Source: an uncultured Gammaproteobacteria bacterium
GTDB taxonomy: Bacteria > Patescibacteriota > Microgenomatia > UBA8517
Reading direction: 5' to 3'
Assembly (NCBI GenBank): GCA_964502815.1
Contig: CAZCXV010000002.1
Span: forward strand, 22,802-86,801
DNA length: 64,000 bases
Shown: positions 1,272 to 61,519 of the stretch, in pieces
Layout of the letters: the number at the start of each line of letters is the position of its first letter
How positions within the stretch are numbered: the stretch's first letter is position 1
The notes under the pieces: model-generated
What the model was told of the DNA's origin: nothing
What the model saw: the letters and a program-made list of their open reading frames with translations, nothing else
The model's database searches: none
Position numbers and translations under genes: made by a program

Positions 1272-1341
1272 TCACTTCTTGAAACTAAAGCAAAAGGATC
1301 CCCTTTAAGGGGACTTTTGCGTATCAGAAAACTTTCTGCCA

Positions 1342-1959: not shown

Positions 1960-1966
1960 TCAATAA

Positions 1967-2455: not shown

Positions 2456-2475
2456 AGCTGAAGTATACCAAAATA

Positions 2476-2913: not shown

Positions 2914-2989
2914 AGCCTTGATTCTACTACAAAATCCTTTTGTGCCAAGCTTTGCTTACCATACTTTGCTTCCAGAGCTTGCTTTAGCC

Positions 2990-2998
2990 TGGTATAAT
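2990..2998 (+). promoter_or_regulatory. extended -10 promoter element (TGgTATAAT) for rnpB
   Basis: TG at 2990-2991, one spacer base, TATAAT at 2993-2998, immediately upstream of the RNase P RNA P1 helix. Confidence 0.45.
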
Positions 2999-3000
2999 AG

Positions 3001-3291
3001 AGTTACTCTGGATGGAGGGTGATTACTCGCCTTAAAAAGCGAGAGGAAAGTCCAGGCAGCCGAAGACAAGCTGGTAGTCGTAAGGCTACACGCGTAAGCG
3101 CTAGTCAGAGCAACAGAGACTATGTCGGTCAAAAAACCCTAAAGGTTTGGCGATACGAGTGAAAAGGGCAATCCTCGCTGCTGCAACCTCCGACTAGGAG
3201 AGGGGGTCTTCCCCGTTAATATCCTGAAGTGAGGGCTAAGATAGATTATCACCGAGAAACAAAACCTGGCTTACTACCATCCAGAGTAAAT
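3001..3291 (+). ncRNA. rnpB: RNase P RNA (bacterial type A-like, compact ~290 nt)
   Basis: GAGGAAAGTCCAGGC (P4 5' strand) near the 5' end, ACAAAACCTGGCTTAC (P4 3' strand) near the 3' end, P1 pairing AGAGTTACTCTGGATGG / CCATCCAGAGTAA; matches the E. coli rnpB consensus blocks GGAAAGUCCGGGC and ACAGAACCCGGCUUA. Confidence 0.8.
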
Positions 3292-3293
3292 TC

Positions 3294-4271
3294 TTATTTC
3301 TGACTTTTTAGTCTTGCCTGAAGAAGTGACTCAATAGAAATCACCACCGGAACAGAAAGAATTGCACCGGAAATCCCTGCCAGCTTAAAGCCAATAATAA
3401 TTGACAAAAGGGTCACAACCGGGCTTAAGCCAACTGACTTTTTCATAATGTTTGGCACAAAGACATAATTTTCCACTTGCTGAACTAGAAATGCTAAAGC
3501 AGCCACTGCGACCCCACTCCAGGGAGAGACACTAAAACCAACGATGACTGCAGGAACAGCAGCTACAATTGGTCCAAGCATTGGAATAAGCTCCAGAAAG
3601 CCCGCTAGGATAGCTAAAGGCAGGGCATAAGGAACACCAATAAGAAGCAATCCCACATACACAGATAGACCTACTATAAACATTAGAATCAATTCTCCTC
3701 TAGCCCAACCTCCCAACCTGTTTTCTAGCTCCCTAAGAATGGTTTTTAAGCTGTTTGCTTTAGATTCGCCAAAAAAATGTTCCAATTCATTTTCCAAAGT
3801 AGCCCATTCAATAACGAGATAAAGAGAAACGATTAAGGTAGAAAGAATTGTTAGGGTATTTGAGAAAATCGACACAACAAAGCCACCAATTTGCTGCGGC
3901 AACTTACCCAATTGGGCGCTTAATTCTTGAGCAAAAGTCTGATTTAAACCAAAAGGCAGCTGAAAATTTGAGATGTAGCTTGGAAGGATACCCACAAAAG
4001 CAGTCGTCTGATCAATAACAGCAGGAACAAGTCCAGAAAGACTTACTCCCAATATACCAATCAAAATAAGATAAATTACAATTGCCGAAATCCCCCTGGG
4101 AACTTTGTATTTTGACAACTTGGTAACTAAGGGGTTTAGAATTATGGCAATCAAAAGAGCAACAAAGACCTGCAAAATTACATCTCTAACTAAATAGAGA
4201 AACCATAAAAGCATTAAAAAAAGAACGGTAAAAATAATTGTTCGGTGAGAGATCTCAATTTTCCTTAGCAT
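3294..4271 (-). CDS. AI-2E family transporter (UPF0118/PerM-like permease)
   Basis: Multi-TM protein with C-terminal LPLAILAGFLELIPMLGPIVAAVPAVIVGF typical of AI-2E transporters. Start taken at internal Met (MLRKIEISHRT) to avoid an 89-nt overlap with miaA; track ORF 3294..4343. Confidence 0.65.
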   Translation of the reverse strand: MLRKIEISHRTIIFTVLFLMLLWFLYLVRDVILQVFVALLIAIILNPLVTKLSKYKVPRGISAIVIYLILIGILGVSLSGLVPAVIDQTTAFVGILPSYISNFQLPFGLNQTFAQELSAQLGKLPQQIGGFVVSIFSNTLTILSTLIVSLYLVIEWATLENELEHFFGESKANSLKTILRELENRLGGWARGELILMFIVGLSVYVGLLLIGVPYALPLAILAGFLELIPMLGPIVAAVPAVIVGFSVSPWSGVAVAALAFLVQQVENYVFVPNIMKKSVGLSPVVTLLSIIIGFKLAGISGAILSVPVVISIESLLQARLKSQK

Positions 4272-9484: not shown

Positions 9485-10105
9485 CTATTTTACCATTTTT
9501 TTAAAAACGGCGTCAATTGTCTCCCAACTAAAGCCTTTCCTGGCCAAGAAGCCAGCTAGCTTAGCCTTAGCATTTTCATCGGGCAGCTTTTCTATTAAAG
9601 ACTTTTTCTTGAGTGCTAGTTGGTAGGCAACTTCAACTTCATCTAAAATAGTGTCTTCCAGAACTACGTCAATTATTTGTCTGTTAATGCCTTTTTGTTG
9701 AAGTTCAATTTTTAGAAGCCTTTTGCTTCTTGGTCTGAAACTATTTCTTTCTTGAACCCACCATCTGGCAAATTTTTCATCACCAATCAGTTCATACTTG
9801 GCTAGCTTGTTAAAAAGTTCCTCATGCAAAGATGTATGCACTTCTTTTCTTCTTAGGTAGTCTCTGAGTTCTTTTTCGCTTCTAGGCCTGGTCATTGCAA
9901 ACTTCAAAAGCTTTTCCAAGGTCTTTTGAAACTCCGCCTTTTTGATAATATTTTCTATTTCCTCTTCTGACAGTTCTTGATCTACTTTTAAACCCAAAAT
10001 TACAAAATTATCTAAATCAATTCCGAAACCAAATTTATTATCTAAGTAGACATTAACCCTATCGGTCTTTTTCTTTTGTTGTTTTATGAAAGTAATTCTT
10101 GGCAT
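9485..10105 (-). CDS. recX: RecX family regulatory protein
   Basis: Three-repeat helical RecX-like sequence (ELRDYLRRK..., FARWWVQER..., LAGFLARKGFSWETI); downstream of recA in the same orientation; start overlaps the stop of the preceding ORF. Confidence 0.65.
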   Translation of the reverse strand: MPRITFIKQQKKKTDRVNVYLDNKFGFGIDLDNFVILGLKVDQELSEEEIENIIKKAEFQKTLEKLLKFAMTRPRSEKELRDYLRRKEVHTSLHEELFNKLAKYELIGDEKFARWWVQERNSFRPRSKRLLKIELQQKGINRQIIDVVLEDTILDEVEVAYQLALKKKSLIEKLPDENAKAKLAGFLARKGFSWETIDAVFKKMVK

Positions 10106-10854
10106 TATTGTTCCAGAAGGAACTCTAGCATTGGGACGACATACGACAACCTTTTGCCCACATCATCTTTTTCTACTTTGTTTTTCAATTCTTCCAAATC
10201 GATGTCTAATATGAACGGGTCTTCCCACGACAGCCAATCAACATTTTTTGTCTGAATTTTGTCTTTTAGTCGAAGTATCATTTCCGATAAAATCGTTAAG
10301 TCTTTCTGTTTAACAGTCGGCATTATTTCTACCAAATCACCAGCAGGAGCGGCCAAGTGACACCAGGCAAAATCGAGAGTTTTCTCAAAAAGAATTTCAC
10401 CAACTTTAGTTAAAGCTGACTCAGCTGCATAATATTTTAAGGGGTGACTTGCCCAGGCTTTCTTGCTTCTCATGTATAAAACCGGGTTTTTAAAATTAAC
10501 ACTCTCTTTAATATCCGCTACAAATTCTTCTTTATGTTCTCCCAATAAGACAAATAGTAGCCTATCTGCAGAAGTCAAATGAATAATCTCATTGTTTGAT
10601 ACAATCTCAGCTCCTCTTTTATATACTGATACAAAATGGTCTCCAATTTGAGAATCTTTAGGATTTGAGACAATTTCAAAAAAACTGTCTTTAGCTAATG
10701 CTTCAATATATTCCTGCTGTAATTCAAAAGTGGCAGGGGAAAAACCAACGACACATTTAGAGAAAAGTAATTTCAGATCGGGAATTGCTTTTTCTAATAA
10801 TGAAATTATTCTGCCATTTTTGTCATGAAGAGGAAAAGCTATTATTGGAGGCAT
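10105..10854 (-). CDS. hypothetical protein between recA and recX
   Basis: Track ORF 10105..11025 (306 aa) overlaps recA by 143 nt; start at internal Met (MPPIIAFPLHDKNGR) leaves a 30-nt overlap. No recognised motifs; translationally coupled to recX (shared base at 10105). Confidence 0.4.
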   Translation of the reverse strand: MPPIIAFPLHDKNGRIISLLEKAIPDLKLLFSKCVVGFSPATFELQQEYIEALAKDSFFEIVSNPKDSQIGDHFVSVYKRGAEIVSNNEIIHLTSADRLLFVLLGEHKEEFVADIKESVNFKNPVLYMRSKKAWASHPLKYYAAESALTKVGEILFEKTLDFAWCHLAAPAGDLVEIMPTVKQKDLTILSEMILRLKDKIQTKNVDWLSWEDPFILDIDLEELKNKVEKDDVGKRLSYVVPMLEFLLEQ

Positions 10855-10882
10855 AGGTATATTATAGCAACTAATCTCTAAG

Positions 10883-11992
10883 TTATTCTTCTTTTGTTTC
10901 GCCAATTTCATTTGGAAGTGGCTTTTTACTTGCAGAAACTGATTCCCTAATTTTCTTGTCCAAATCTTCTGCAAACTTTGAATTATCTTTAATATAAGTT
11001 TTGGCTCCTTCTCTACCTTGGGCAATTATTTTTCCTTCATAGCTGAAAAAAGATCCAGCTTTGGTAATTATTCCCAGTTCTGTCCCAACATCTAGAAGTC
11101 CACCTGACTTGGAAATGCCTTCGTCATTCATAATGTCAAACTCGGCGACCTTTAGAGGGGGGGCGACTTTATTTTTGACAACTCTAACTCTGGCTCGCAT
11201 ACCAATTGCATTATCTCCATCCTTAATGGTTTCGATTCTTCTAATATCAAGCCTGATTGAAGAGTAAAACTTCAGAGCCAACCCTCCTGGCGTTGTTTCT
11301 GGATTGCCAAACATCACTCCAATCTTTTGTCTTAGTTGGTTGGTAAAGAGTAGAATCGTTTTTGATTTGCTGATTGCTCCAGTTAATTTTCTTAAGGCCT
11401 GGCTCATAAGCCTGGCCTGCATACCCATAACCGAGTCGCCCATTTCGCCTTCTAACTCTGCTCTTGGCACTAAGGCTGCAACAGAATCCACAACTATTAC
11501 ATCTACCGCTCCAGAACGAATTAAGGTTTCAGTAATTTCCAAAGCTTGTTCACCAGTGTCTGGCTGGGACAATAGCAAATCATCTAAGTTAACTCCAAGT
11601 ATTTGGGCTCTCACAGGATCCAAGGCGTGTTCCGCATCAACAAAAGCTACTTGCCCACCTTTCTTTTGCGCTTCAGCAATGATATGCAAACAAACTGTGG
11701 TTTTGCCACTTGCCTCCGGACCATAGATCTCTATAATTCTTCCTCTAGGAACTCCACCAACGCCGAGGGCCAAATCCAGTGCGATAGAACCGGTTGGAAT
11801 AACATCTATTTTTGAATCCGGAGCTTTCTGACCAAGTCTCATAATAGAGCCCTTTCCATACTGCTTTTCAATTTGTTCCATCGCTAACTTAATAGCTTGG
11901 AGCTTTTCTGAGCCTTGAGTTTGGGGTTTTGTTGTTGGTGTTTCTTTTTTTACTTTTGCCACTTGTGCTAAGGTTATAAGCAAAACTTGCAA
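10883..11992 (-). CDS. recA: recombinase RecA
   Basis: [12 protein letters not shown] (Walker A), IVVDSVAAL, and an overall RecA-like sequence; ~25-aa N-terminal extension before the conserved [22 protein letters not shown] block. Confidence 0.9.
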
Positions 11993-12007
11993 CTATTACA
12001 GGCTTCG

Positions 12008-12021
12008 CTGTAACGTTATAG
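12008..12021. promoter_or_regulatory. palindromic element CTGTAACGTTATAG in recA upstream region (candidate operator)
   Basis: Core perfect palindrome TAACGTTA flanked by CTGT...(A)TAG, 16-29 nt upstream of the recA start on the minus strand; resembles but does not match the CTGT-N8-ACAG SOS-box logic. Confidence 0.2.
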
Positions 12022-12079
12022 CAAGTCCTGTAGTTAAATGCAATAGGTTATTTGCAAATCAATTTGTTAAAATGGAAAC

Positions 12080-12658
12080 ATAGATATCGATTTAACTGAA
12101 AGCCTAAAATTATTAAAGCAAGGTTACATTGGCGTTCTCCCTACCGACACTGTTTATGGTATTCATGCACAAGCGTTAGATAAAAATGCAGTTGAGAAAG
12201 TATATGACATAAGAGATAGAAATCCCAAAAAGCCTTTTATTATTTTAATTTCCCAAATAGGAAACTTGAAGCTTTTTAATATCGATATAGATTCTAAAAC
12301 TCAAAAATTCTTGAAGAATCACTGGCCAGACAGATTAAGTGTAATTCTTGATTGCAACCAGGAAAAATTTAAATATCTTCATAGAGGAACAAACACCCTT
12401 GCATTCAGGCTACCCAAAAAACCCGACTTGATTGATATCTTGAAAGAAACAGGGCCATTAATTTCAACCAGCGTTAATCCAGAAGGATTAGAACCGGCAA
12501 AAAACATCCAGGAAGCAAAAAACTATTTTGGAAACAAACTAGACTTCTACGTAGAGGATGCCTCTGTCAACCTTATTTCATCCCCATCAACAGTAATTAA
12601 GATAGATAGTGAAGGAAAAGTTGAAATAGTTAGACAGGGAATAGTAAAAATCACTTAA
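12080..12658 (+). CDS. tsaC: L-threonylcarbamoyladenylate synthase (TsaC/YrdC family); start codon unresolved
   Basis: In-frame upstream of track ORF 12266..12658 lies the conserved YrdC N-terminus DIDLTESLKLLKQGYIGVLPTDTVYGIHAQAL...NPKKPFIILIS. In-frame stop at 12068-12070; no ATG/GTG/TTG before the motif; only ATA (12080) or ATC (12086) are available. Confidence 0.55.
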   Translation: MDIDLTESLKLLKQGYIGVLPTDTVYGIHAQALDKNAVEKVYDIRDRNPKKPFIILISQIGNLKLFNIDIDSKTQKFLKNHWPDRLSVILDCNQEKFKYLHRGTNTLAFRLPKKPDLIDILKETGPLISTSVNPEGLEPAKNIQEAKNYFGNKLDFYVEDASVNLISSPSTVIKIDSEGKVEIVRQGIVKIT

Positions 12659-12666
12659 TTCTAAAT

Positions 12667-12737
12667 TCGGGGAAAGAAGAATTGAACTTCTACCGGACCG
12701 ACCCCATCGGCCCATTCTACCGTTAAACTATTCCCCG
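12667..12737 (-). tRNA. tRNA-Pro (anticodon GGG)
   Basis: Minus-strand cloverleaf CGGGGAA-TA-GTTTAACGGTAGAAT-G-GGCCG ATGGGGT CGGTC-CGGT-AGAAG TTCAATT CTTCT-TTCCCCG-A. 7-bp acceptor, T-loop TTCAATT, U33, anticodon GGG, G37; 71 nt, CCA not encoded. Confidence 0.6.
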
Positions 12738-37130: not shown

Positions 37131-38255
37131 ATGAATAAAATATTTTCTGGAGTCAGAGTTTTAGATCTAACCAAAGTTTTCAGTGGTCCTTTTGCAACCA
37201 GAATGTTGGCTGATTATGGAGCAGAAGTAATAAAAGTTGAAAACAGCCTTTCTCCAGATGACACTAGAAACTTTCCTCCCTTAAAAAATAACTGGAGCGG
37301 TTATTTTGAAATTTTAAATCGCAACAAAAAAGGGGTAAGTTTAAATCTTAAAAATGAAATTGATTTGCAAAAACTTTACAGCTTAGTCAAAAACTGCGAC
37401 GTCTTTGTAGAAAACTTTGCACCAAAAACCAAATTTAGCCTCAAAATCGACTATCAAACTCTAAGGAAGATAAACCCAGAAATTATCTATGCCTCACTTT
37501 CTGGACGTGGACAAACTTCCAGTGAAAAGTATTATGACATCATTGCCCAAACCCAGTCCGGTCTTCTTTCTTTAACTGGAGAAGAAAGAAAACCAATAAA
37601 AATTGGTCCTGCGGTAGTTGATGCTTTTTCTGGAATGACTCTGGCGTTTGCAATTTCTTCAGCACTTTTTTACAAACAAAAAACAGGACAAGGACAATAT
37701 ATTGATGTCTCCATGCTTGCCTCTTCCTATAACTTATTGGAAAGCAGCTTAATCCAGTCTTCAGTAACAAAAACAAATCCCAAAAGAACAGGAAACCAAG
37801 ATGGCTTAATTGCTCCTTTTGGAATCTATAAAACTAAAGATGGTTTTATAGCGATTGCCATTGGCAACCAGCTCTTTTGGAAAACTTTTGCTGGTTTCCT
37901 GCAAAAGGAATCCTCTATCTCTATTCCCTGGGATAAATTTTCCAGCAATGAAGCAAGAATTCAAAATCAAACAAAGTTAACCCAGATAATTGAAACTGTT
38001 TTTAGCAGATTTGAAACAGAATATCTAGTTTTTGCTTTAAAAGCTTTAAATCTCCCTGTTTCCAAAGTAAACACCATGCAGGATGTTTTGAAAAATGAAT
38101 TTAACTACCAAGAAAACTTTCTCTTAAGGGGAAAAAATGAGAAGGCCGGTGAATTTGTAACTACTGGTTTTTCAGTAAGATTTTCTGAACAAAAAGATTA
38201 CCAGATAGTAAACGCTCCCCAAATAGGAGAAAATAATAAGGATTATGGGATTTGA
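37131..38255 (+). CDS. CoA-transferase family III (CaiB/BaiF/formyl-CoA transferase family)
   Basis: N-terminal GVRVLDLTKVFSGPFATRMLADYGAEVIKVE is the family III CoA-transferase signature. Start at internal Met (MNKIFSG); track ORF starts at 37089. Confidence 0.75.
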   Translation: MNKIFSGVRVLDLTKVFSGPFATRMLADYGAEVIKVENSLSPDDTRNFPPLKNNWSGYFEILNRNKKGVSLNLKNEIDLQKLYSLVKNCDVFVENFAPKTKFSLKIDYQTLRKINPEIIYASLSGRGQTSSEKYYDIIAQTQSGLLSLTGEERKPIKIGPAVVDAFSGMTLAFAISSALFYKQKTGQGQYIDVSMLASSYNLLESSLIQSSVTKTNPKRTGNQDGLIAPFGIYKTKDGFIAIAIGNQLFWKTFAGFLQKESSISIPWDKFSSNEARIQNQTKLTQIIETVFSRFETEYLVFALKALNLPVSKVNTMQDVLKNEFNYQENFLLRGKNEKAGEFVTTGFSVRFSEQKDYQIVNAPQIGENNKDYGI

Positions 38256-39174
38256 CCTCCTGCCCTATAAAGATGGTTATTTCCAAAAATTAGTTGACCT
38301 ACTTAGTCTATCCTTTGAGATGAAAGCACAAGACAAACAAGAACTCATAAGGTGGAAACTACTTAATAGAATCTGGGGTGAGCCAATAATTTATACTGCT
38401 TTTAGTGAAGATAGATTAATAGGTGTCTACACCAGTATTCCCCATCCAATCTCCTACGAAAACGAAACTATTTTGGCGACTGGCTGCATTGATATGGTTA
38501 CCCACCCTGATTACAGAAGACAAGGAATAATTAAAAAATTAGCAGAAAAAACCTATCAAGAAGTAAAAAATCAAAATTACGAATTATCTTTTGGCTTTTC
38601 AAACGAAGAGGGAGTAAAAGTAGACCTGAATGCCAATGGTTACGGCTACTTTGTCCTCGGCAAGTTTCAAAAATATTACAAATTAGTTGTCAGAAAGAAA
38701 AGTTGCAGCCTTTCTTTAAAAGAAACGGGTGATATAAATGTTCCAGCTTTCATTAATCCTTACTTGCAAATAAAGAAAGACAAAAAATACCTAGACTGGA
38801 GATATATCACAAAGCCTGGTGTAGATTGCCAACTGTTTGAGATACAAGGAGACACTACTGGCTTAGTAGTATTGAAATTCGAACACAACTCCTGCTATGT
38901 CTATGATATTGTTTCAGATTACTCAGACCAAAAAAACATTTTTGAAATTGTGAGAGCAATAGAAAATTACTGTTTTGATAAACACATCCATATGGTTGTC
39001 TACAACTGTTTAAAAAATAAATTTTGGGAGAAAATATTTGCCAGTTTCAAATTCTTGAAACTACCAGATGTTGGCAAGAAATACTATTTCACGGTAAAAG
39101 TCCACAACGATCAAAATAAAAATCTTTACCTAAACAAAAACAATTGGTTACTTCTTTCTGGAGATATTATTTAG
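38245..39174 (+). CDS. GNAT-superfamily acyltransferase (FemAB/BioF2-like size)
   Basis: Acyl-CoA binding motif MVTHPDYRRQGIIKKLAE (R/Q-x-x-G-x-G/A); 11-nt overlap with the upstream CoA-transferase suggests an operon. Confidence 0.5.
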   Translation: MGFDLLPYKDGYFQKLVDLLSLSFEMKAQDKQELIRWKLLNRIWGEPIIYTAFSEDRLIGVYTSIPHPISYENETILATGCIDMVTHPDYRRQGIIKKLAEKTYQEVKNQNYELSFGFSNEEGVKVDLNANGYGYFVLGKFQKYYKLVVRKKSCSLSLKETGDINVPAFINPYLQIKKDKKYLDWRYITKPGVDCQLFEIQGDTTGLVVLKFEHNSCYVYDIVSDYSDQKNIFEIVRAIENYCFDKHIHMVVYNCLKNKFWEKIFASFKFLKLPDVGKKYYFTVKVHNDQNKNLYLNKNNWLLLSGDII

Positions 39175-50831: not shown

Positions 50832-50859
50832 ATTATAGCTACAAATCAAAGAGTGTCAA
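50832..50859 (-). promoter_or_regulatory. consensus promoter TTGACA-16-TATAAT upstream of the rpoB leader
   Basis: Minus-strand -35 TTGACA (plus 50854-50859), 16-nt spacer, -10 TATAAT (plus 50832-50837), directly after the mltG stop. Confidence 0.45.
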
Positions 50860-52090: not shown

Positions 52091-52483
52091 TTATTTGTAT
52101 TGTACCTGATCCAAATAACTTTGCAAGATAATGGCAGCTGCATAAGCGTCTTCCATATCTTTTCTCTTCTTTCTTTTGATGCCAGCCTCACGAGCCAGAA
52201 ATTGGGCGTCTAAGGAAGATAAAGTTTCATCGTGGAAAACTACCTCAATATTAAGTTTCTCTTTTAATTTCTTACCAAACTCAAGTGCATCTTTTTTTGA
52301 ATCTCTTTCACTCTTCCCCACCACTATTCTCTCAATATTGTGCGACTTAATTATTTTTGTCAGTTTTTCAATTAGTTTTTCTTCACTTGAATACCTGATA
52401 ACTTCCAAAGGTTCAGAAATTTTGGTCTCGGCAAGAGCCACCCCTACTTTGGCTTGCCCGAAGTCAATTCCTAATAGCCGCAT
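52091..52483 (-). CDS. ruvX: Holliday junction resolvase-like RuvX/YqgF
   Basis: MRLLGIDFGQAKVGVALAE (RNase H-like first strand with catalytic D), ...KDMEDAYAAAIILQSYLD C-terminus. Confidence 0.8.
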   Translation of the reverse strand: MRLLGIDFGQAKVGVALAETKISEPLEVIRYSSEEKLIEKLTKIIKSHNIERIVVGKSERDSKKDALEFGKKLKEKLNIEVVFHDETLSSLDAQFLAREAGIKRKKRKDMEDAYAAAIILQSYLDQVQYK

Positions 52484-53120
52484 TTGCCTCCTCTGGTGGA
52501 ACAATCCTAGCTTTTACTACAAGTCTTTTTGGTCTGGTTGGATCTCCTGGTGGGGTACAGGTAACAAGGGTTAAAAATGAATCGCTCAAGTTTTGTTCCA
52601 ATACTTGGGCATCAGTTGGAACTACTTCGGTCATACTTTCGATTCGATATTTATAGCTCACGCCGTCATATGCCACAAACACTTCATCATTCATTTTTAG
52701 CCTATCCAAAGTTGAAAAAATGGTAATGTAGCTTTTGGGGTCAAAAAAAGCCGGTAAAACTGAATGGCCAAAAACCACCGCATTGCCTCTCTTTCCTGGA
52801 ACTGCAGTTCCAGGGTATTGAATTAAATGTTCTGCCAAATCTTCTCCACCAATTGCTACAGCTGCATTTTCAATTTTTAACTTTGGGATAGAAATAGTAT
52901 AAAAAACAACATTATTCGAACCAAAATCACCTGGTTTGGATTCTGGCAACCAGTTTGACAATTTCGAATAATCAATACCGTTAGTTTTCGTAAAAGTCGC
53001 AAACTTCTGGTCTTTGGTTAAATTGTAGCTAACTATTGGATAAAACACCCAGACAATAATTCCTAGGCCAACTAGACCACTGGTAATTGCAATTAATCTT
53101 AGTATTAGTTTTGTCTTCAT
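52464..53120 (-). CDS. sortase family transpeptidase
   Basis: N-terminal TM, catalytic GHSV (His) and TLVTCTPPG (TLxTC Cys) motifs, conserved Arg in RLVVKARIV. Confidence 0.7.
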   Translation of the reverse strand: MKTKLILRLIAITSGLVGLGIIVWVFYPIVSYNLTKDQKFATFTKTNGIDYSKLSNWLPESKPGDFGSNNVVFYTISIPKLKIENAAVAIGGEDLAEHLIQYPGTAVPGKRGNAVVFGHSVLPAFFDPKSYITIFSTLDRLKMNDEVFVAYDGVSYKYRIESMTEVVPTDAQVLEQNLSDSFLTLVTCTPPGDPTRPKRLVVKARIVPPEEANAAIRN

Positions 53121-53187
53121 ATTTCTAAGTCTCTCACAATTTAGCAAATCTACAACACACTCCACAAGAGATATCCTTTAAAGAAGT

Positions 53188-56100
53188 TTAAGAGCTTGTG
53201 TTTTTCTCCCACAAAACATCCATATCGTCAATCATGTATGGCGGGTTGTAAGAAAATCTTTTAGTCGTTTGGAATTTATATGATTTTCCAACTTCAGATA
53301 TTCTTTTTTCTATAGCTTTTTCAAATCCCCCACCTGTTCTATTAGTTCTAATAGCTGTATTTTTTGAAACTAATATCTTATCAAAATCATTGTTATTGGC
53401 AAATTGCTCTACTTTTTTTATTATTCCCACAAATAATGCTTCTTCATCTACGGAATATAGGTATGTACTTGAAGGATTGAAGGAGACTGACAACAGTTTT
53501 TGACCGTTTTCTTCGTATGCATGCATCAATACCAAACCCTGACAGATTGCTGTTTCTGGGTCTTTAAACACCAACTGCAAATACTCGGGCATATTCCACA
53601 TCTCTTCATCACCTGAAACACACACTCCTCCTACCATTCTTGCATTTGCTGTTTCTTTTGTCTTTGAGATATAGCCATACAAAACTTCTCTTTGCTTTCC
53701 AGAAAGTGATTCAAACTTTTCAAGTTCATCTTGTATTGCAAGTCTTTCCAATTCAAAGATATCTATAAACCTCTGGGCAGTGTATGAAGCAAACTGTTCA
53801 TCATCATATTTTCCACTTCTAATATTTGCTTCTACATTTAATGCCTCTTGCAAATTTATTTCCCCCAAATGTGTCCCTGAATCTATTTCACCATTAGTTA
53901 TTAACTTATATGCAGCTAGTGTTTTTTCTCTTTGTGACCTTAACTGAGCATAAAAAGCTTTAGTGCGCGCCTTGGGAGATTCTGTTTTATCATTAGACAA
54001 GTAATCCACAAAACTCTCGTAGCGATCAACGATTCTATCGATAGATGGTCTCATTTCTTGCCATTGTATTTCCAATTCCTCCTTTTTCTTCCTTAAGCCA
54101 TTCCTATCTTCTTCAAGTTGTTTTATCTTTTCTTTTCTTTCATCAACAATCTTAATTGCACCTGCCTTACCTATATTCTTTTGAACTCGTGATATTTCAT
54201 TATCTATATTTGCAATATCATCTAATACCTGAGCTGCTGGAATTATTACATTAAAAAATGGAATTCTATTAGGAACTACTTCCATATTTTTCTTTATTTT
54301 TTCGGCGCTACTCAAAATTTTAACAACTTGTCGAGCGAAGCTATCTGATAATCCCAGCCTGTCAATTTGCAATCTATTGATTTCATCTTGTCTTTCAGAA
54401 CTGGATGCTTCTTCAGATAATTTCTTAAAATATTCCGGCATTGCATCTGCAATAGTTTTGTTTTCCCACGCAAATTGAACGATTCTCCTGTGTACCTCTT
54501 TTATCCTGTCTGCATAGAATGTTTCCAATTCACATAAAAGTGCATATTGAGGATTATTTGCAATTCCTACTCTATCTCTTGTTCCAGCAATATAATCTGC
54601 TATATCTTCAAACTCTGCAAACTCATACTTGATTATCAAACTCTTAATTACTTCTGGATCTAAACTTTTTGTTCCATATATTGAATCAGATAGAACTAAA
54701 AATAACTTTTCTTCAGCTGTTTTAACTTCCGCTAAATTAACACTTTGCAATCCACCGATTTCTACAATTTGAGCTAATGTTTCATCAAGGTTAACAATTA
54801 GTAATTCCATTGCTTTTTGTTTGTCATAATTAAAATCTTTCATTTGGTCAGCCACAGCATATATTGGAGTTTGAATATTTTCATGAACTTGCAAATTCAA
54901 TTGTTGTCCATCTTTAACCCTAATTTCTGCTTGAGATAGTAAATCTATTTCATATCTGGGATCAATTTTATATTTTGCCAAATCTTGTGATCTGTCTTCA
55001 CATTTTTCGTTTTCCGTGTAAGATGACCAACCACTAGCATTCTCTGCATAAACATGCCTGAGTAAGTCTTTATAAAACGGCTTTTTCCGTTCTTCTTCAG
55101 AGATTATTTCTTCACCAGTCATTTTCTCGGCCAAACCTTTAAGTTGAACCATAAACATCTTCTCACTTCCATTTTGTTTGGCTTGCTTGTAAGCTTCAAC
55201 AATACCAGGAGTTATAACCCTAAATTGTTTTGCAAATTCTATAATTAGACTTCGTTCGCTTTGATCTATTACTCCTGCATCTAAACATTCTTTATATCCT
55301 CTAATAATAGAGTCTGACTTTTGTCCAAACTCTCCAATTAACCTACCAAGAAATTTGACATCCTCAGTAGTTTCCATCAGTTCTCCATGGTTAGAAAAAA
55401 CGAAATTCCAAATCTCGGACATTTTTTCACCAAGTAATGATTTTGCGTATTTCGGTATCGAGAAAATTCCTTCTAGCTCGATTTCCGTATTTCTTATCGC
55501 ATTGGTAACTTCTTGAGAAGTCAAGTATCTCAATATTTCCAACTTCTGTTGGTTTTCGTAAATTTCAGCGGACAAAGATATTACTCTTTGTAGACGTATG
55601 AGCGCATCTTTTTGTCCAATGCGGTCTCCTATTTCACTTTCAACAACCATAAAAAGCAATTTGTCTCTGAGCAGTTTTTGAAAATAGAAGCTTTTAATAT
55701 CAACCCAACCTTTTAGTTTAGGTCTACCATCTCGCATAGCATCCATGGTTTTTTCAATTTCCAATAATTTATTGTCGGTCTCAAACAAAGAAGCCGCCTC
55801 TTGCTGCGAAATTGTTCCCCTTGAAATTAAGAGATCTGCAAGTGTCTGAGTCCTTAAAGTTTCTGCAGCCAAGGATAATAATTCAGGATTTCTGTCCTCT
55901 ACATTAGTTAATATTGATATTGCAAATTCTTCTGCTTTTCTTGAACCAAGTGATACTATTCTATCGCTACCCCCAAGTATCCAACCTTCCAACACCTTTC
56001 TGTTGTTTTCAAGTCCTGGATATTTTGTGATAGCAGCGTCAATAATTTGCTGCCAGTCTGATCGTTTTGAGAGTTCATTTAAGGCGGTATTGACTGCTGA

Positions 56101-57510
56101 AACATTATATTTATGTGAACTTTCATATTCGCCATAAGAAGCTATCAAGACCAAATTTCTTATTGTCTCTGGAGTTGGATATTTAGCTAGCAATTTTATT
56201 TCTCCACCAACAGTAGAACCTGCATGTAGTGAAGACTTTAGTGCATCTTGGTATATTTTTTCGTCAATTTTTTCCAATTGATCATCTCCAAATATAGCAT
56301 TTACTTCAGAGTTTGCCTGCAAAATTTCCCAAAAACTCAAATTTGCAGGACTTTTAACAATATGTTCTGCAGATATTTCCTCTATTTTTACCGTTTCGGG
56401 ATTACTACTTACTCTCGACCCCGGCCTACCCAGTCTTTTATATTTAGTTCCAGTTGCTGTTGCTATTATTTGTTCCCGGTCAAAATCTGAAAGTATAAGG
56501 TTTATGCCCTCCGATTCATAGGCTATTTTTTTGATGTCTTCGACAAACAAACTTCCCACCATTCTTCTTAATACCGAGATATCAGATTTTTTAGTAACAA
56601 GGGTTGTCCATTCCAAGACTAAATAGCCGTTCCACAATAACGAATTTTCTCCCAAACTTTGTCTTAATTCATTAAGTTCCCTCTCTGCTTCCAAATCATT
56701 TCTCAATACTATCTGGCTAGCCATTTTTAGGGAACTAACTATTTCTTCTTCACGGCCTTGATAGATTTTATATTCTTTACACCACTTAGACAATAAAGGT
56801 ACAACACATTTGTCTATATATTCCTCCCTAACTTGAGGGATAATATTAGGACTATTTTCTAGTTCTGTCATATATTGTAAATATTGACCCCGAACTTGTT
56901 GCACTTCTCTAACAACTTCATTTTCAATGACTTCTTCTTGAAATCTCCTAATTGGAGTGCCTATATTTTGATATCTAGCAGCTTCTTCACGCAATTTTTT
57001 CCTCTCAATTCTCAAAGCATCAATTTGATTTTCCAAAACCAAAGCTCCAGGCTGTCCTTCTAGTCCCTTTTCCCATATTTCTTCGTTCAAAGAATTTATT
57101 TTTTCCGATATTCGGTTTGCTTGATAATTTCTCTTTGCCTCCCAGGCTTCAACCAATTCAGCTGTTTTAGAACCTGTCTCTAGTGCCTTTTCCACTGCAT
57201 CTCCTCTAAGATTATTTTTATCGATTTTCAATAAATACTCTGCTGACTGCTGCAACAGGTTGATTGAAGGTAAATCCATTGTTTCCACTTCTTCTAAATC
57301 TAATCTTGATTGAGACAAAGCAACTAATCTTCCTATCCTATCTTGGCTGGGAAACACCTTTGACCTTATCTCTGCGAGTCTTTGTCTTAATGGATGCTCT
57401 TCTGAAAAAGTTTTCAATTCGTTCTCGGGCTTAAGAACAGAGTCGGTGTTATTCTCTGACATGTTTAATTTTACAATACATTTGAAGCTATCTCTCAGCA
57501 GTGACCTCAA
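53188..57510 (-). CDS. giant hypothetical protein (1440 aa, cytoplasmic, coiled-coil/alpha-helical repeat-like)
   Basis: Uninterrupted 4.3-kb ORF, no signal peptide/TM, no Walker motifs found by eye. E/K-rich predicted coiled-coil stretches and HEAT-like helical repeats. Start overlaps the upstream 760-aa gene stop by 23 nt. Confidence 0.5.
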   Translation of the reverse strand: MRSLLRDSFKCIVKLNMSENNTDSVLKPENELKTFSEEHPLRQRLAEIRSKVFPSQDRIGRLVALSQSRLDLEEVETMDLPSINLLQQSAEYLLKIDKNNLRGDAVEKALETGSKTAELVEAWEAKRNYQANRISEKINSLNEEIWEKGLEGQPGALVLENQIDALRIERKKLREEAARYQNIGTPIRRFQEEVIENEVVREVQQVRGQYLQYMTELENSPNIIPQVREEYIDKCVVPLLSKWCKEYKIYQGREEEIVSSLKMASQIVLRNDLEAERELNELRQSLGENSLLWNGYLVLEWTTLVTKKSDISVLRRMVGSLFVEDIKKIAYESEGINLILSDFDREQIIATATGTKYKRLGRPGSRVSSNPETVKIEEISAEHIVKSPANLSFWEILQANSEVNAIFGDDQLEKIDEKIYQDALKSSLHAGSTVGGEIKLLAKYPTPETIRNLVLIASYGEYESSHKYNVSAVNTALNELSKRSDWQQIIDAAITKYPGLENNRKVLEGWILGGSDRIVSLGSRKAEEFAISILTNVEDRNPELLSLAAETLRTQTLADLLISRGTISQQEAASLFETDNKLLEIEKTMDAMRDGRPKLKGWVDIKSFYFQKLLRDKLLFMVVESEIGDRIGQKDALIRLQRVISLSAEIYENQQKLEILRYLTSQEVTNAIRNTEIELEGIFSIPKYAKSLLGEKMSEIWNFVFSNHGELMETTEDVKFLGRLIGEFGQKSDSIIRGYKECLDAGVIDQSERSLIIEFAKQFRVITPGIVEAYKQAKQNGSEKMFMVQLKGLAEKMTGEEIISEEERKKPFYKDLLRHVYAENASGWSSYTENEKCEDRSQDLAKYKIDPRYEIDLLSQAEIRVKDGQQLNLQVHENIQTPIYAVADQMKDFNYDKQKAMELLIVNLDETLAQIVEIGGLQSVNLAEVKTAEEKLFLVLSDSIYGTKSLDPEVIKSLIIKYEFAEFEDIADYIAGTRDRVGIANNPQYALLCELETFYADRIKEVHRRIVQFAWENKTIADAMPEYFKKLSEEASSSERQDEINRLQIDRLGLSDSFARQVVKILSSAEKIKKNMEVVPNRIPFFNVIIPAAQVLDDIANIDNEISRVQKNIGKAGAIKIVDERKEKIKQLEEDRNGLRKKKEELEIQWQEMRPSIDRIVDRYESFVDYLSNDKTESPKARTKAFYAQLRSQREKTLAAYKLITNGEIDSGTHLGEINLQEALNVEANIRSGKYDDEQFASYTAQRFIDIFELERLAIQDELEKFESLSGKQREVLYGYISKTKETANARMVGGVCVSGDEEMWNMPEYLQLVFKDPETAICQGLVLMHAYEENGQKLLSVSFNPSSTYLYSVDEEALFVGIIKKVEQFANNNDFDKILVSKNTAIRTNRTGGGFEKAIEKRISEVGKSYKFQTTKRFSYNPPYMIDDMDVLWEKNTSS

Positions 57511-59719
57511 TATTAATATTTTTGGTCACTCTAGGTAAGGCTCCAAGACGTCCAGGAAGTTTAGGAGTTGGCTTAATGACTACTCTCGAGAAGCTGGCAA
57601 TAGAACTTAAGTAATCTTGGGTGAACTTTGGCGACTTGCCAGTAATCTTTTTGGCAACTTCATCAGGGTTAATTGAAGGCAGTAAATTTGCAGAAACTTT
57701 CATTTCAACTTCAATTATTCCACCTTTGTTACTTTTGACTGTAAATTCGTTTTCAATTTGTTCATCCCGTAAGACAAAGCCATCTGGCACACTTTCCGCA
57801 AGTAAAGACTTTGATAGCTTAAGCAAATCCTCTTTGGACACTACTGGGGCAGAAGCGTTGCCTTTTAGGGTTAATTTTAAATCCTTAGCTTCATCCCCAA
57901 CTTTGTGGTTGAAGTCCTTTTGGTCAGTGGCGACAGAAGTTGCATCACCAATAATAATTTGACTGTCTTCCAAAGTTTCGTTTATGGCTGATTTACCTTT
58001 TTCTTCCAGCTCCTTGGTTACTTTTTCTTCCAAGCTTTCCCTGTCATCAGCAGAAACTGCCTGAATGTCTCTACTTGAGCCCCCACTAAAGGCACTGTCG
58101 GCAACACCGTCCACTTCGCTCTTTGGGTAATTTCCCACCTTAAATGATTCTCCTTTTGCCAAATTTGATTCCGATCCAATTGCTTCGGCAATAGCTTCAA
58201 CAGTTGTCATCCCGGGGCTGGTAGGCGAAGTTGCCGCCGATATAGACGCGGATTGGAGAGGGATAAATTTCAAGTTACTACTACTCAAAAGAACTGTTGT
58301 TGCAGTTAATTTTACAGGAGTTGCAGTCCCGTTTCTAACTTGGACCTTTCCTTTGGCTTTTTCACCAACAGTTTTGGTACCAGTAGCTATTACCTCGCCT
58401 TGGGCAGACACTTCTTTAGTAACCATTTTTCCAGTTAAAGTGTTTGAACCAGTTGCAGACCCAGATCCAGTATTAATAAAAACGTTTTGTGTCTTTGAAA
58501 TCTCTTTTGGTGAAACATAGATAATAACCTCGGCCTTTGGCAAAAACCACCAGGCGGCAAATAGGCCAACAAATAAAATAACTAAGGCAAGAGCTCCAAA
58601 TTTAAAAGGTTTGTCATTAGCCATTAAACTATCCAAATGAGTTGGCCCACTCATGGCTTTAAGAGCCACTTTCGGTAATTTTAATTCAGACTTATTTTTA
58701 AGCTTTCTCAATAATCTTCCTAGAAAAACCAGGGGGGTAAACTTTTTTACTTGGTGAACAGATTCTTCTTTGTGAATGGCAAACTCTGAAGGTTGATTAT
58801 GACTATATAAATCTTTGGTTTGTGGTCTATCCTCAAAATTATCTCCAATATCTTGACCAAGAGAAAAACCCAGCTCACGAGGATCCACTGTTTGGCTTTC
58901 AAGATTGGCTGCCTCTTTAGGAATACTTTCAGTTTCCTTAAATGTTGGCAAACTTTGACCAATCTGTTTTTTAACCAATCCTTGTACGCTTTGAGCTCCG
59001 GCAATTTCAGATGCTCCTGCAAGACTGACCGCAACTATTTTTTCTTCTGGATCAATCATTTCAATTTTTGGCGTATGCAGAAACTTCACTTTTTCATTAC
59101 CTGTCCAATCTGCTTGCGAAAGCGCATCTCTACCAAACTCCAATTCACTAATTTTTCCATCGTAGACAATAAATCTTGACGGATAATGCTCTTCAACCGG
59201 AAATCTGGTTAATCCTTCGGTTACATCTTCGACCAAAGACAAACTTCTGGCAACACTGACATTGCCGACTAAATTCCCAAGCTTAAACAAAGAGACATCT
59301 AAATATTCCTTTCCAAAACCAATTAATATTCCAGTTAAAGGCGAGCCCTCTTGACTTTTGATATAGTAGGCAAGGGCTTCGGGCAAAACTACAAAACCTG
59401 AAGGTTCGAGAGAAAGTTTGGAACAAACAACTCTAATCTTTTCTAGGTATTCAGGCTTAATGTTGCCCTCTGCCACCCAGGAAGAAGGTATGCCAAAAAC
59501 AACTTTAGACGGTTCTTCTTCGCTTTCAGGAAAATCATTGATTGCGTCAGACAAGGAAGTGTCAACTGACGTAACTAAGTCTTCATCACTTTCCCAATAA
59601 ACAGGTGTTGAGGCAGCAATTATCTTGGCAATTTTTCCATCCTCGCCCTCTTGGGTTGTCCAAATTGAAGCTTGCACCCAGCCTGTTTCAATTGTTAGTG
59701 TCCAGTAATATTCGGGCAT
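57488..59719 (-). CDS. bitopic membrane protein: degenerate actin-like (FtsA/PilM-like) cytoplasmic N-domain, 1 TM, long Ser/Thr/Gly-rich extracytoplasmic C-domain
   Basis: N-terminal LTIETGWVQASIW (phosphate-1-like) and TGILIGFGKEYLDVSLFKLGNLVGNV (phosphate-2-like, DxGxG degenerated) suggest an ASKHA fold. TM at FGALALVILFVGLFAAWWFL; C-terminal 370 aa low-complexity S/T/G-rich, no LPXTG. Confidence 0.5.
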   Translation of the reverse strand: MPEYYWTLTIETGWVQASIWTTQEGEDGKIAKIIAASTPVYWESDEDLVTSVDTSLSDAINDFPESEEEPSKVVFGIPSSWVAEGNIKPEYLEKIRVVCSKLSLEPSGFVVLPEALAYYIKSQEGSPLTGILIGFGKEYLDVSLFKLGNLVGNVSVARSLSLVEDVTEGLTRFPVEEHYPSRFIVYDGKISELEFGRDALSQADWTGNEKVKFLHTPKIEMIDPEEKIVAVSLAGASEIAGAQSVQGLVKKQIGQSLPTFKETESIPKEAANLESQTVDPRELGFSLGQDIGDNFEDRPQTKDLYSHNQPSEFAIHKEESVHQVKKFTPLVFLGRLLRKLKNKSELKLPKVALKAMSGPTHLDSLMANDKPFKFGALALVILFVGLFAAWWFLPKAEVIIYVSPKEISKTQNVFINTGSGSATGSNTLTGKMVTKEVSAQGEVIATGTKTVGEKAKGKVQVRNGTATPVKLTATTVLLSSSNLKFIPLQSASISAATSPTSPGMTTVEAIAEAIGSESNLAKGESFKVGNYPKSEVDGVADSAFSGGSSRDIQAVSADDRESLEEKVTKELEEKGKSAINETLEDSQIIIGDATSVATDQKDFNHKVGDEAKDLKLTLKGNASAPVVSKEDLLKLSKSLLAESVPDGFVLRDEQIENEFTVKSNKGGIIEVEMKVSANLLPSINPDEVAKKITGKSPKFTQDYLSSIASFSRVVIKPTPKLPGRLGALPRVTKNINIEVTAER

Positions 59720-61463
59720 ATATTCTTCTGATGCCAGCCGAGGCTGACTCTTCTTTATATATCTTAACACGCCCGTTAATTTCTTTCAGGTTAGTGACAT
59801 GCGGACCACCACAGACTTCTTTTGAAAAAAATTCACCTCGAGGGTCACCTATTGTATAGACTTTTACTTTTTCTCCATACCTTTCACCAAAAAAGGCTAC
59901 TGCACCCTCTTTAATTGCTTCAGCTAAGGTTTTTACTTCGTAAGACACAGGTAGTTCTCTTTTGATTTCTTGGTTAACTAAATCCTCAATTTCTTTTAGC
60001 TGTTCAAGCGTTAACTTTTCAGAGTGGGTAAAATCAAACCTTAACCTTTCAGCTGTGATATTACTGCCTTTTTGAGAAACATGATTTCCAAGTACCCTTC
60101 TTAAAGCTGCATGAATCAGATGTGTTGCAGTATGAAGACTTGTTGTTTCTTTGGAGTGATCTGCAAGTCCCCCTTTAAAAGTTCCGCTAGATGCAGTCCT
60201 AGATATATCTTGGTGTTTGGAAAATTCCTTTTTAAATTCTTCAACATCAACTTCCTGGCCTTTCTCTTGGAAAAGTTCTATCGTTAATTCCAAAGGAAAA
60301 CCATAAGTTTGATATAGATCAAAAGCGATCTTGCCATCAATCTTGGCAATTTTTTCTACCTCTTTCAGGCCTTTTGAAAGCGTGACTAAGAACTTTTTCT
60401 CTTCACTTTTGATGGTATTTATAATCTCAGCTTGCTTCTCAATGAGTTGTTTATAATCCTGGCCGTAAATAGAAATGACTGCCTTGGCTATTGGGCTTAA
60501 AAACTCCTCATGAACTCCAAGTTTTTTTCCAAACCTAGCAGCTCGTCTTATTAATCTTCTTAAGATATAACCTCTTTCTTTGTTTGAAGGAAAAATACCC
60601 TCAGAAATTACAAAAACGGATGCTCTAACGTGATCGGCAACAATCCGGTGCTCTTTTTTGTTGTCCACATATGTCGTATTTGTAACTTCAGCAACCTTTT
60701 TTAGAATATCTCCCCAAACAGAATCAACTTGATAATTGTCGTCAAAACCAGAAAAAACTGCGCAAGTTCTTTCAACTCCCATGCCGGTATCAACATTTTT
60801 TTGCTTTAAAGGTTCAAATTTTCCTTCTGTAGTTTTGTTGTATTGCATAAAAACATTATTCCAAATTTCAAAAAACCTTCCACAGCCGTCTCCAGGTTTG
60901 CAACCTGATCCATGGGGAACTCCAGTTGCATCGTAAAAGATTTCTGAGTCCGGGCCACAAGGCCCGGTGTGGCCTGCAGGTCCCCACCAGTTGTCTTTTT
61001 TTGGAAAAAAGTAGATTCTTTCATCAGGGATACCCAATTTCTTCCAAATATTTGCTGATTCTTCATCTTTAGGGGCATCATTATCCCCTTCAAAACAAGT
61101 CACCCAAAGCTTATTTGGATCTGCACCTAATTCACCAACCAAAAACTCATATGACCAAGTTAGAGACTCTTTTTTCCAATAGTCTCCCAAAGACCAATTA
61201 CCTAGCATTTCAAAGAAAGTGTTGTGACTGGTGTCGCCCACCTCATCAATATCGTCAGTCCTGAGGCAAAGTTGGTTATCAACAATCCTTTTTCCCCCAG
61301 GATGAACTTCTCCTAAAAGATATGGAACCAGGGGATGCATGCCTGCAGTAGTAAACAAGACTGTAGGGTCATTTTCTGGCACCAAAGAAGCAGAAGGGAT
61401 AATGGTGTGTCCCTTTTTTTTAAAATAATTAAGATATTTTTCAATTAATTCACGTCTATTCAT
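59688..61463 (-). CDS. alaS: alanine--tRNA ligase, short form lacking the C-Ala domain
   Basis: Class II core FTTAGMHPLVPY (motif 2 region), FFEMLGNWS, editing-domain HTATHLIHAAL...CGGPHV; 591 aa ending right after the editing domain. Confidence 0.9.
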   Translation of the reverse strand: MNRRELIEKYLNYFKKKGHTIIPSASLVPENDPTVLFTTAGMHPLVPYLLGEVHPGGKRIVDNQLCLRTDDIDEVGDTSHNTFFEMLGNWSLGDYWKKESLTWSYEFLVGELGADPNKLWVTCFEGDNDAPKDEESANIWKKLGIPDERIYFFPKKDNWWGPAGHTGPCGPDSEIFYDATGVPHGSGCKPGDGCGRFFEIWNNVFMQYNKTTEGKFEPLKQKNVDTGMGVERTCAVFSGFDDNYQVDSVWGDILKKVAEVTNTTYVDNKKEHRIVADHVRASVFVISEGIFPSNKERGYILRRLIRRAARFGKKLGVHEEFLSPIAKAVISIYGQDYKQLIEKQAEIINTIKSEEKKFLVTLSKGLKEVEKIAKIDGKIAFDLYQTYGFPLELTIELFQEKGQEVDVEEFKKEFSKHQDISRTASSGTFKGGLADHSKETTSLHTATHLIHAALRRVLGNHVSQKGSNITAERLRFDFTHSEKLTLEQLKEIEDLVNQEIKRELPVSYEVKTLAEAIKEGAVAFFGERYGEKVKVYTIGDPRGEFFSKEVCGGPHVTNLKEINGRVKIYKEESASAGIRRIYARILLDTNN

Positions 61464-61519
61464 GCCTTGAATTATACCTCACCTTGTTTTTTTGTGCATT
61501 TTTGGTATTATCTACATCA

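Follow-up and report, generated by a model that had tools for sequence, protein, structure and literature searches.

Eukaryotic N-acetyltransferase (NAT) complexes contain a large helical TPR subunit, for example Naa15, in which the catalytic GNAT subunit is cradled. O-GlcNAcase carries a C-terminal HAT-like domain that is a pseudo-acetyltransferase domain, and FemX and L/F-transferase are aminoacyl-tRNA transferases that have a GNAT fold and use donors other than coenzyme A (CoA). The core topology of GNAT enzymes is b(0)-b1-a1-a2-b2-b3-b4-a3-b5-a4-b6(-b7), and their pyrophosphate-binding P-loop, Q/R-x-x-G-x-G/A, is located in the loop before helix a3 (PMC4964394). Acyl-CoA is held in GNAT enzymes by a beta-bulge in b4 and a V-shaped splay between b4 and b5. 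We analysed a 64-kb stretch of DNA (contig CAZCXV010000002.1; 'the window' designates this whole stretch) in which one giant gene encodes a 1424-residue protein, the last ~160 residues of which are predicted with high confidence to adopt a divergent GNAT acyltransferase fold. We favour, with slightly better than even confidence, the view that the product is a soluble accessory protein whose working end is this GNAT-fold domain, carried by two helical parts, a variable N-terminus and a module that is novel and conserved, and that its target is probably a macromolecule.

The giant gene lies, as the initial annotation had stated, in an uninterrupted open reading frame (ORF), 53188-57510; it is on the minus strand and has 1440 codons when counted from TTG (ORF list and translation). 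The maximal ORF reaches this TTG at 57510; the first in-frame ATG is at 57462 and gives a product of 1424 amino acids (aa). The ATG at 57462 is the likely start: it is used by the gene callers on two public contigs, and it agrees with the N-termini of the homologues. The DNA of the gene was identical on a 107-kb contig from a groundwater metagenome (ENA) and on a Logan contig independently assembled from another run; therefore the ORF contains neither a frameshift nor an assembly join, and it is a real, intact single gene. The coding sequence and the C-terminal features discussed below are as follows.

53188..57462, minus strand: giant-protein coding sequence, 1424 aa plus stop codon (ORF list and translation; same product on the ENA and Logan contigs)
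53206..53685, minus strand: GNAT-like alpha/beta domain, aa 1260-1419 (AlphaFold2 pLDDT ~93; Foldseek against PDB and BFVD)
53608..53643, minus strand: ARMVGGVCVSGD, aa 1274-1285, in the a1-a2 loop (coordinates checked by translation)
53455..53478, minus strand: NPSSTYLY, aa 1329-1336, spanning the end of b4 and the loop that leads to a3; P1330 invariant, at the GNAT P-loop position
53320..53352, minus strand: IRTNRTGGGFE, aa 1371-1381, b5-a4 loop and start of a4 (alignments A2, A3 and A5)

The structure of the core of the protein (aa 690-1424) was predicted by AlphaFold2 (AF2) from a 66-sequence alignment, with a mean predicted local distance difference test score (pLDDT) of 88.3 and a predicted TM score (pTM) of 0.68. 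The elements assigned by DSSP to aa 1260-1419 of this model follow each other in the order b1-a1-a2-b2-b3-b4-a3-b5-a4-b6-b7, so that the predicted domain has the GNAT core topology. Its strands are at core positions 571-576, 605-611, 618-629, 632-641, 673-677, 705-713 and 721-730, and its helices at core positions 581-589, 597-600, 651-668 and 689-702. When the core model was compared with the PDB by Foldseek, nearly all of the top 50 matches were GNATs, with probabilities up to 1.00. The best match was NatD/Naa40 (E=2.5e-3, probability 1.0); Naa50 and a T. brucei acetyltransferase were found at a TM score of 0.60 (target-normalised), and the other matches included HAT1, Gcn5/PCAF, GNA1, RimJ and FeeM (2g0b, rank 28). 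In an independent library, BFVD, GNAT acetyltransferases were again the sole high-probability matches. The domain thus has the same predicted fold and element order as the GNAT protein N-acetyltransferases NatD/Naa40, Naa50, HAT1 and Gcn5/PCAF, and its b6-b7 hairpin resembles that of Naa50. It differs from these enzymes in lacking both a canonical P-loop and any detectable sequence or profile similarity to them, in having an invariant Cys in the a1-a2 loop, and in being fused to ~1250 helical residues.

A set of residues is invariant or near-invariant across alignments of 29 to 115 sequences, in which identity falls to ~23-30%. They are C1281 and W1289 in the a1-a2 region, C1307, G1309 and H1314 in b3, N1329 and P1330 at the end of b4, R1372, T1373, N1374, R1375, F1380 and E1381 in the b5-a4 loop and at the start of a4, and Y1409 in the b6-b7 hairpin. 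Within ARMVGGVCVSGD, C1281 is invariant in the 115-, 66-, 39- and 29-sequence alignments, and R1275 and D1285 are near-invariant. Within IRTNRTGGGFE, N1374 and R1375 are invariant in all alignments and T1373 in alignment A5; R1372, F1380 and E1381 are near-invariant. Judging from the register of the predicted secondary structure, all of these residues except the b3 set would fall on the elements that form the cofactor and acceptor sites of GNAT enzymes. The presence of invariant polar and aromatic residues on GNAT-like loops argues for a constrained working site and not for a decaying domain. A Cys-His hydrolase formed by C1281 and H1314 was considered and not adopted, as all structural matches were GNATs and none was papain-like or a thiol hydrolase.

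Several observations weigh against the GNAT assignment and against an enzymatic role. First, the assignment comes from predicted structure only, and the Foldseek E-values are marginal (2.5e-3 at best, with a root-mean-square deviation of 5-8 A). Second, acetyltransferase families were not detected at the sequence level, whether by a Pfam hmmscan of 29 isolated C-terminal domains at E<=10, by hmmscan of the giant protein at E<=1 or by Pfam scans of 71 full-length family members. The family profile did not retrieve any GNAT from the PDB sequences, where the matches of the whole-family and C-terminal-domain profiles were confined to noise and designed helical repeats. In a comparison by hhalign with RimI, for which the alignment was of low diversity, the probability was 0.2%. 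A broader GNAT profile attempted from ORFs comprised three sequences only. Third, a regular-expression search for Q/R-x-x-G-x-G/A found no match in the GNAT-like domain, the sole match in the protein being at aa 773, outside the domain; the P-loop position before a3 is occupied by the conserved family motif NPSSTYLYSVD. Fourth, the Pfam scans of family members found no fused domain hinting at a substrate, and no gene family recurred next to the giant gene across the 43 other loci described below, the best candidate being a MetRS-like tRNA-synthetase cluster over six loci.

These observations make room for a non-catalytic scaffold, that is, a large helical adaptor in which the GNAT-like domain would be a binding-only pseudo-enzyme; O-GlcNAcase, with its HAT-like domain, and Eis, with its central GNAT domain, offer parallels. 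Such pseudo-acetyltransferase domains resemble the present one in having a GNAT fold within a multidomain protein and no canonical acyl-CoA P-loop and, for O-GlcNAcase, in their C-terminal position; the giant family differs from them in keeping invariant polar residues in the active-site loops. The absence of a canonical P-loop and of a GNAT signal at the sequence level fits a scaffold, as does the composition of the giant protein, ~88% of which is helical repeat or long helix in the AF2 models. GNAT domains without the conserved Q/R can be inactive, as is the central domain of Eis; however, AAC(2')-Ic and PseH are active GNATs with atypical P-loops (PMC4964394). The concentration of invariant C, W, N, R and Y residues on the GNAT active-site loops, in sequences with identities down to ~23-30%, weighs against a binding-only role, and we regard a pure scaffold as rather unlikely.

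In the reading that we prefer, the GNAT-like domain would transfer an acyl group, or bind a ligand bearing an acyl group or a nucleotide, and the long helical scaffold would hold the target, a macromolecule and most probably a protein or a complex of proteins, in position. Acyl transfer from acyl-CoA is plausible on the basis of the model; the atypical cofactor loop would also be compatible with another donor, or with a role in binding alone. The likeness to eukaryotic NAT complexes lies in the overall logic, a small GNAT domain being attached to a helical scaffold of very large size for the positioning of macromolecular substrates. The differences are that the giant protein is a single polypeptide and that its helical part has no significant structural match to TPR, HEAT or ARM proteins; no evidence was found that it associates with ribosomes. 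FeeM N-acyl amino acid synthase (the 2g0b match above), FemX and L/F-transferase share with the giant family a GNAT fold devoid of the standard CoA P-loop. There is no sequence similarity to these three, and no evidence that the giant family uses acyl-ACP or aminoacyl-tRNA; the adjacency of the giant gene to alaS is not conserved across family loci.

The giant protein is not an orphan. When aa 225-1424 were compared exhaustively by phmmer with 1.84 billion cluster representatives, 438 relatives (clusters at 50% identity) were detected at E<=1e-3, 135 of them at E<=1e-30; the best matches were 42-55% identical and 1000-2100 aa long. The family therefore comprises at least 438 clusters at 50% identity. 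A word-indexed search with the single protein, and then with a 32-sequence alignment, returned nothing, in part because the 90%-identity cluster that contains the full-length giant protein (P0151, P0152) is represented by an 80-aa fragment. All family members with a source name are labelled 'hypothetical protein', and no description of the family was found in the literature. In conclusion, this family was previously unannotated: no Pfam or NCBIfam model, source annotation or paper describing it was found, and no strong homology to a characterised family was detected. On the AF2 models, it is a GNAT-fold family lacking a canonical P-loop, fused to a novel helical module of ~450 aa and new to annotation.

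The 150 best homologues were aligned onto the giant protein to map its conservation. Residues ~700-1050 and ~1150-1424 were conserved, being covered by 101-138 of the 150 homologues; this C-terminal module of ~720 aa is common to the family. The ~700 aa at the N-terminus are variable, and the alignment extended upstream of aa 400 for only 35 of the 150. Residues ~1050-1150 were aligned in only 8-18 homologues and are an insertion largely peculiar to the giant protein of the window. The protein is built of three parts: a variable helical (HEAT/ARM-like) N-terminus of ~700 aa, a conserved novel helical module of ~450 aa, interrupted in the window protein by the charged helical insertion of ~100 aa, and the C-terminal domain of ~160 aa with its predicted, divergent GNAT fold. 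The regions that precede this domain are the following.

55393..57462, minus strand: N-terminal variable helical region, aa 1-690, predicted all-alpha and HEAT/ARM-like (AF2 model m888693eb3155; homologue coverage)
56857..57201, minus strand: two very long predicted helices, aa 88-131 and 138-202, E+K 24% (DSSP on the AF2 model)
55963..56280, minus strand: best-conserved N-terminal block, aa ~395-500, '...YPTPExIRNLVL...DW...YP.L' (consensus of alignment A4)
54313..55365, minus strand: conserved central helical module, aa ~700-1050 (124 of the 150 best homologues cover aa 750-1050, with 112-125 per 50-aa block)
54013..54312, minus strand: charged helical insertion, aa ~1051-1150 (E+K 24%, charged residues 39%, pLDDT 41-80)
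53686..54012, minus strand: conserved helical linker before the alpha/beta domain, aa 1151-1259 (alignments A2, A3 and A5; AF2 helices at core positions 476-558)

Structure prediction in segments agreed with the helical character that had been proposed for this protein, which was observed throughout aa 1-1250. The first ~560 residues of the core model (aa 690-1250) consist of helices and one small hairpin, with a pLDDT mostly above 90 in the central helical module; this module had no structural match in the PDB by Foldseek. Its near-invariant residues are D823, R824, D827, Y837 and Y973 (alignments A2 and A3), and its motifs are 'C-x-D-R-S-x-D-L' and 'GTxDRV..A.N.DYALL.E...FY.DRIKE'. A kinase-like reading of DRSxDL was rejected, the region being helical with only a two-strand hairpin. 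The model of aa 1-690 (pLDDT 85, pTM 0.80) is all-alpha, with a helical-repeat-like body after aa 202; its best Foldseek matches in the PDB, SA2, beta-catenin and karyopherins, were not significant (E>0.3, probability <0.2).

The initial annotation had also described HEAT-like repeats and two E/K-rich, heptad-like stretches. The helices of the former are present in the AF2 models; the repeats themselves were found neither as internal sequence repeats by BLASTP nor as Pfam HEAT matches in the giant protein, HEAT_2 or HEAT_PBS being matched in the N-termini of two other members. The first heptad-like stretch coincides with the two very long helices (44 and 65 residues) and the second overlaps with the charged insertion. 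E+K reaches 23-24% in the long-helix and insert regions, compared with 19% in the whole protein, and is ~18.5% in the second stretch as originally delimited. The best 3.5-residue hydrophobic periodicity was 1.89, compared with 1.96 for the 95th percentile of shuffle maxima, so that heptad periodicity is not significant and the claim of heptad-like stretches is weak.

In the Pfam scans of the 71 full-length members, the only other matches were isolated ones to DUF7507 and CorA, and a HAD hydrolase in two proteins. The latter two, P0134 and P0141, match aa 144-741 only; the C-terminal module is replaced and they end in Hydrolase_3 (HAD/Cof-type hydrolase). The conserved block at aa ~395-500 also occurs in these two proteins, where a HAD hydrolase takes the place of the GNAT-like module. 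The helical N-terminus thus behaves as a module able to carry different enzymatic ends.

The sequence features of the giant protein are those of a large, cytoplasmic, largely helical protein, as first described. It is acidic and charged (11.4% E, 7.7% K). The maximum Kyte-Doolittle hydropathy over 19 residues is 1.25 and therefore no transmembrane segment is expected; neither a signal peptide nor a Walker A, GxGxxG, HExxH, CxxC or LPxTG motif was found in it. The C-terminus, ...VLWEKNTSS, lacks both an LPxTG-like motif and a hydrophobic segment and is thus not a sorting signal; without signal peptide, transmembrane segment and LPxTG, the protein is not a sortase substrate. Searches against Pfam, NCBIfam, PHROG, PADLOC and the PDB sequences gave no significant match, and the empty PHROG and PADLOC results thus offer nothing in favour of an origin in a phage or a defence system. 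The absence of a known domain signature or of a recognisable catalytic motif thus holds for sequence methods; for the catalytic part, structure prediction says otherwise and points to the GNAT-like domain.

We then consider the neighbourhood of the gene. In the window, it stands in a co-directional row that encodes FtsK, an HTH_25/Ig protein, an 80-aa ORF, AlaRS, p760, the giant protein, a sortase, RuvX, YceG/MltG, rpoB and rpoC. An alaS...ruvX-mltG row of this kind resembles the Firmicutes arrangement. The two immediate neighbours are these.

57488-59770, minus strand: p760, a 743-760-aa membrane protein, upstream of the giant gene
52464-53165, minus strand: sortase, downstream of the giant gene

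The giant gene is separated from the p760 stop codon by 25 nt and from the start of the sortase gene by 22 nt, and terminator-like sites between the three genes were not found beyond chance. This co-directional, tightly packed arrangement could suggest that the giant protein works with the membrane protein encoded upstream and the sortase encoded downstream, perhaps in an apparatus of the cell surface or of episymbiosis. When metagenomes were scanned with p760, two relatives, ~41% identical, were detected, on contigs L051 and L052 (p760 and sortase at 9941-12717 and 876-4084, respectively). Both contigs keep the order FtsK-HTH-orf80-AlaRS-p760-sortase-RuvX-YceG-rpoB-rpoC, with 45-74% protein identity, and in both p760 is followed directly by the sortase, the giant gene being absent. 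The giant gene is therefore a lineage-specific accessory insertion into the conserved p760-sortase junction of an alaS...ruvX-yceG-rpoB housekeeping row, and since it was inserted into a conserved pair, its neighbours are uninformative on its function. Neither flanking direct or inverted repeats at the insertion nor a tRNA near the giant gene were found. Its GC content and its GC content at third codon positions (GC3) are ~1.1-1.3 standard deviations below those of the genes of the window; these values are not outlying, and therefore the composition does not tell whether the transfer was recent, nor the age or the source of the insertion.

The junction between p760 and the sortase looks variable. 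In L051 the two genes overlap, at the stop codon of p760 and the start of the sortase; in L052 they are 400 bp apart, and the spacer contains a tandem repeat of 23 nt (3238-3364; 5.5 copies, 99% matches); in the window the junction is occupied by the 4.3-kb gene. The p760 protein has a cytoplasmic N-terminal half, one transmembrane segment and an extracellular half; its L052 homologue matches Pfam Baseplate_J (25.7 bits, for a cut-off of 21.1 bits), and the copy of the window is sub-threshold at 14 bits. It is p760 and the sortase that form the truly conserved pair, an unusual combination of membrane protein and sortase in the candidate phyla radiation (CPR).

Other loci of the family were sought in genomes. 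A first scan with peptides from the giant protein alone found nothing. A second scan used C-terminal peptide patterns, including the IRTNRTGGGFE motif, designed on an 11-sequence alignment (one of 29 C-terminal sequences proved too divergent to yield patterns); with two strict patterns, 44 loci were found. Homologues of the sortase, p760, AlaRS or RuvX were present beside the giant gene in none of the 43 loci other than that of the window; one locus has a YceG homologue ~8 kb downstream. Four homologue-bearing contigs likewise had unrelated neighbours around the gene. The coupling that had been proposed thus stands as adjacency in the genome of the window and fails as functional coupling, both by the two related contigs and by the 43 loci; taken together with the lack of signal peptide, transmembrane segment and LPxTG, it is essentially refuted, and a partnership of the giant protein with the sortase and the membrane protein is very improbable.

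The labels of the 44 loci are mostly of the Patescibacteria type: Gottesman-, Roizman-, Levyi-, Uhr-, Peri- and Saccharibacteria, Kerfeld-, Taylor-, Komeili-, Berkel-, Nomura- and Dojkabacteria, as well as Paceibacterota and Parcubacteria. Ten loci (L009-L013, L016, L018, L021, L024 and L027; TPA metagenome-assembled genomes, MAGs) are labelled 'uncultured Gammaproteobacteria/Pseudomonadales', with 29-41% GC. At least one of these, L013, is syntenic with a Parcubacteria MAG (L022), the neighbouring proteins being 81-87% identical; these organism labels look wrong, and no argument for a wide host range was drawn from the ten loci. Credible members outside CPR were observed in three cases. The Bdellovibrionales MAG HKST-UBA20 (~50% GC) has four paralogues (L036, L040, L041 and L043), with aconitase-family and isopropylmalate/isocitrate dehydrogenase neighbours; a Pseudomonadota MAG has a member with cytochrome neighbours; and a Chlamydiota-labelled member is on a short contig. 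Such giant proteins had been presented as a hallmark of reduced episymbionts: the labels are indeed mostly Patescibacteria, and the family is not restricted to them, as shown by the Bdellovibrionales and Pseudomonadota MAGs. Two Patescibacteria MAGs have two paralogues each (L026 and L046; L038 and L050). In L008, L024, L030, L044 and L047 the gene is split into two adjacent ORFs (e.g. 579 aa + 973 aa, or 1319 aa + 277 aa), which could be frameshifts, pseudogenes, or genuine splits between scaffold and GNAT-like end.

This distribution is patchy and skewed to bacteria that live on or in other cells (many Patescibacteria classes, the Bdellovibrionales MAG with its four paralogues, the Chlamydiota-labelled MAG). 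It would be accounted for if the giant protein were an inter-organism effector, delivered into a host or prey cell, where the GNAT-like domain would modify a host target and the variable N-terminus would set the targeting. The variability of the N-termini and the swappable enzymatic ends (HAD in P0134 and P0141), the insertion into a housekeeping row, the split or frameshifted copies at several loci and the paralogy within genomes are all consistent with such a role. However, a secretion signal, a conserved secretion-system or chaperone neighbour and an immunity-like partner are all absent, and GC and GC3 are not outliers within the window. Moreover, the taxonomic labels are at the MAG level and partly unreliable, and sampling of GTDB genomes by the two strict peptide patterns does not quantify a bias towards host association. 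We therefore consider delivery into another cell to be distinctly unlikely. The same low weight is given to the most extended form of this idea, in which episymbiotic Patescibacteria, predatory Bdellovibrionota and intracellular Chlamydiota would have in common a class of effectors that moves horizontally: a Cys-dependent enzyme of GNAT fold, devoid of a P-loop, which, together with its novel conserved helical module, would acylate a host or prey macromolecule, an interchangeable N-terminus setting target or delivery.

Large 'hypothetical' proteins make up a sizeable share of the tiny CPR/Patescibacteria genomes and usually go uninterpreted. The giant protein can now be assigned to a defined family, the boundaries of which are clear, which has a cryptic GNAT-like domain and which offers a few invariant residues for mutagenesis. 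Should this domain be an active acyltransferase with its non-canonical cofactor loop, it would extend the GNAT superfamily and open a way into protein modification in organisms whose regulation is almost uncharacterised; should the host-associated distribution be borne out, the family would be a candidate effector common to very different parasitic lifestyles. In addition, a misleading lead is removed, as the sortase and the membrane protein are the conserved pair that received the insertion, and not partners of the giant protein.

Additional observations were made in the window. Sigma-70-type promoter matches were found just upstream of rpoB (12/12, 50832-50859, minus strand) and just upstream of alaS (10/12, 61471-61498, minus strand); it is possible, from these two sequence matches, that they bracket an alaS-p760-giant-sortase-ruvX-yceG transcription unit. 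The only RNA gene in the 64 kb, as detected by Rfam and ARAGORN, is a tRNA-Pro (GGG) at 12667-12737 on the minus strand. Finally, a 309-aa ORF (38245-39174, plus strand) was matched by an iterated RimI/GNAT profile with E ~3e-20 over ~30 residues, and may encode a conventional GNAT acetyltransferase, unrelated to the giant family.

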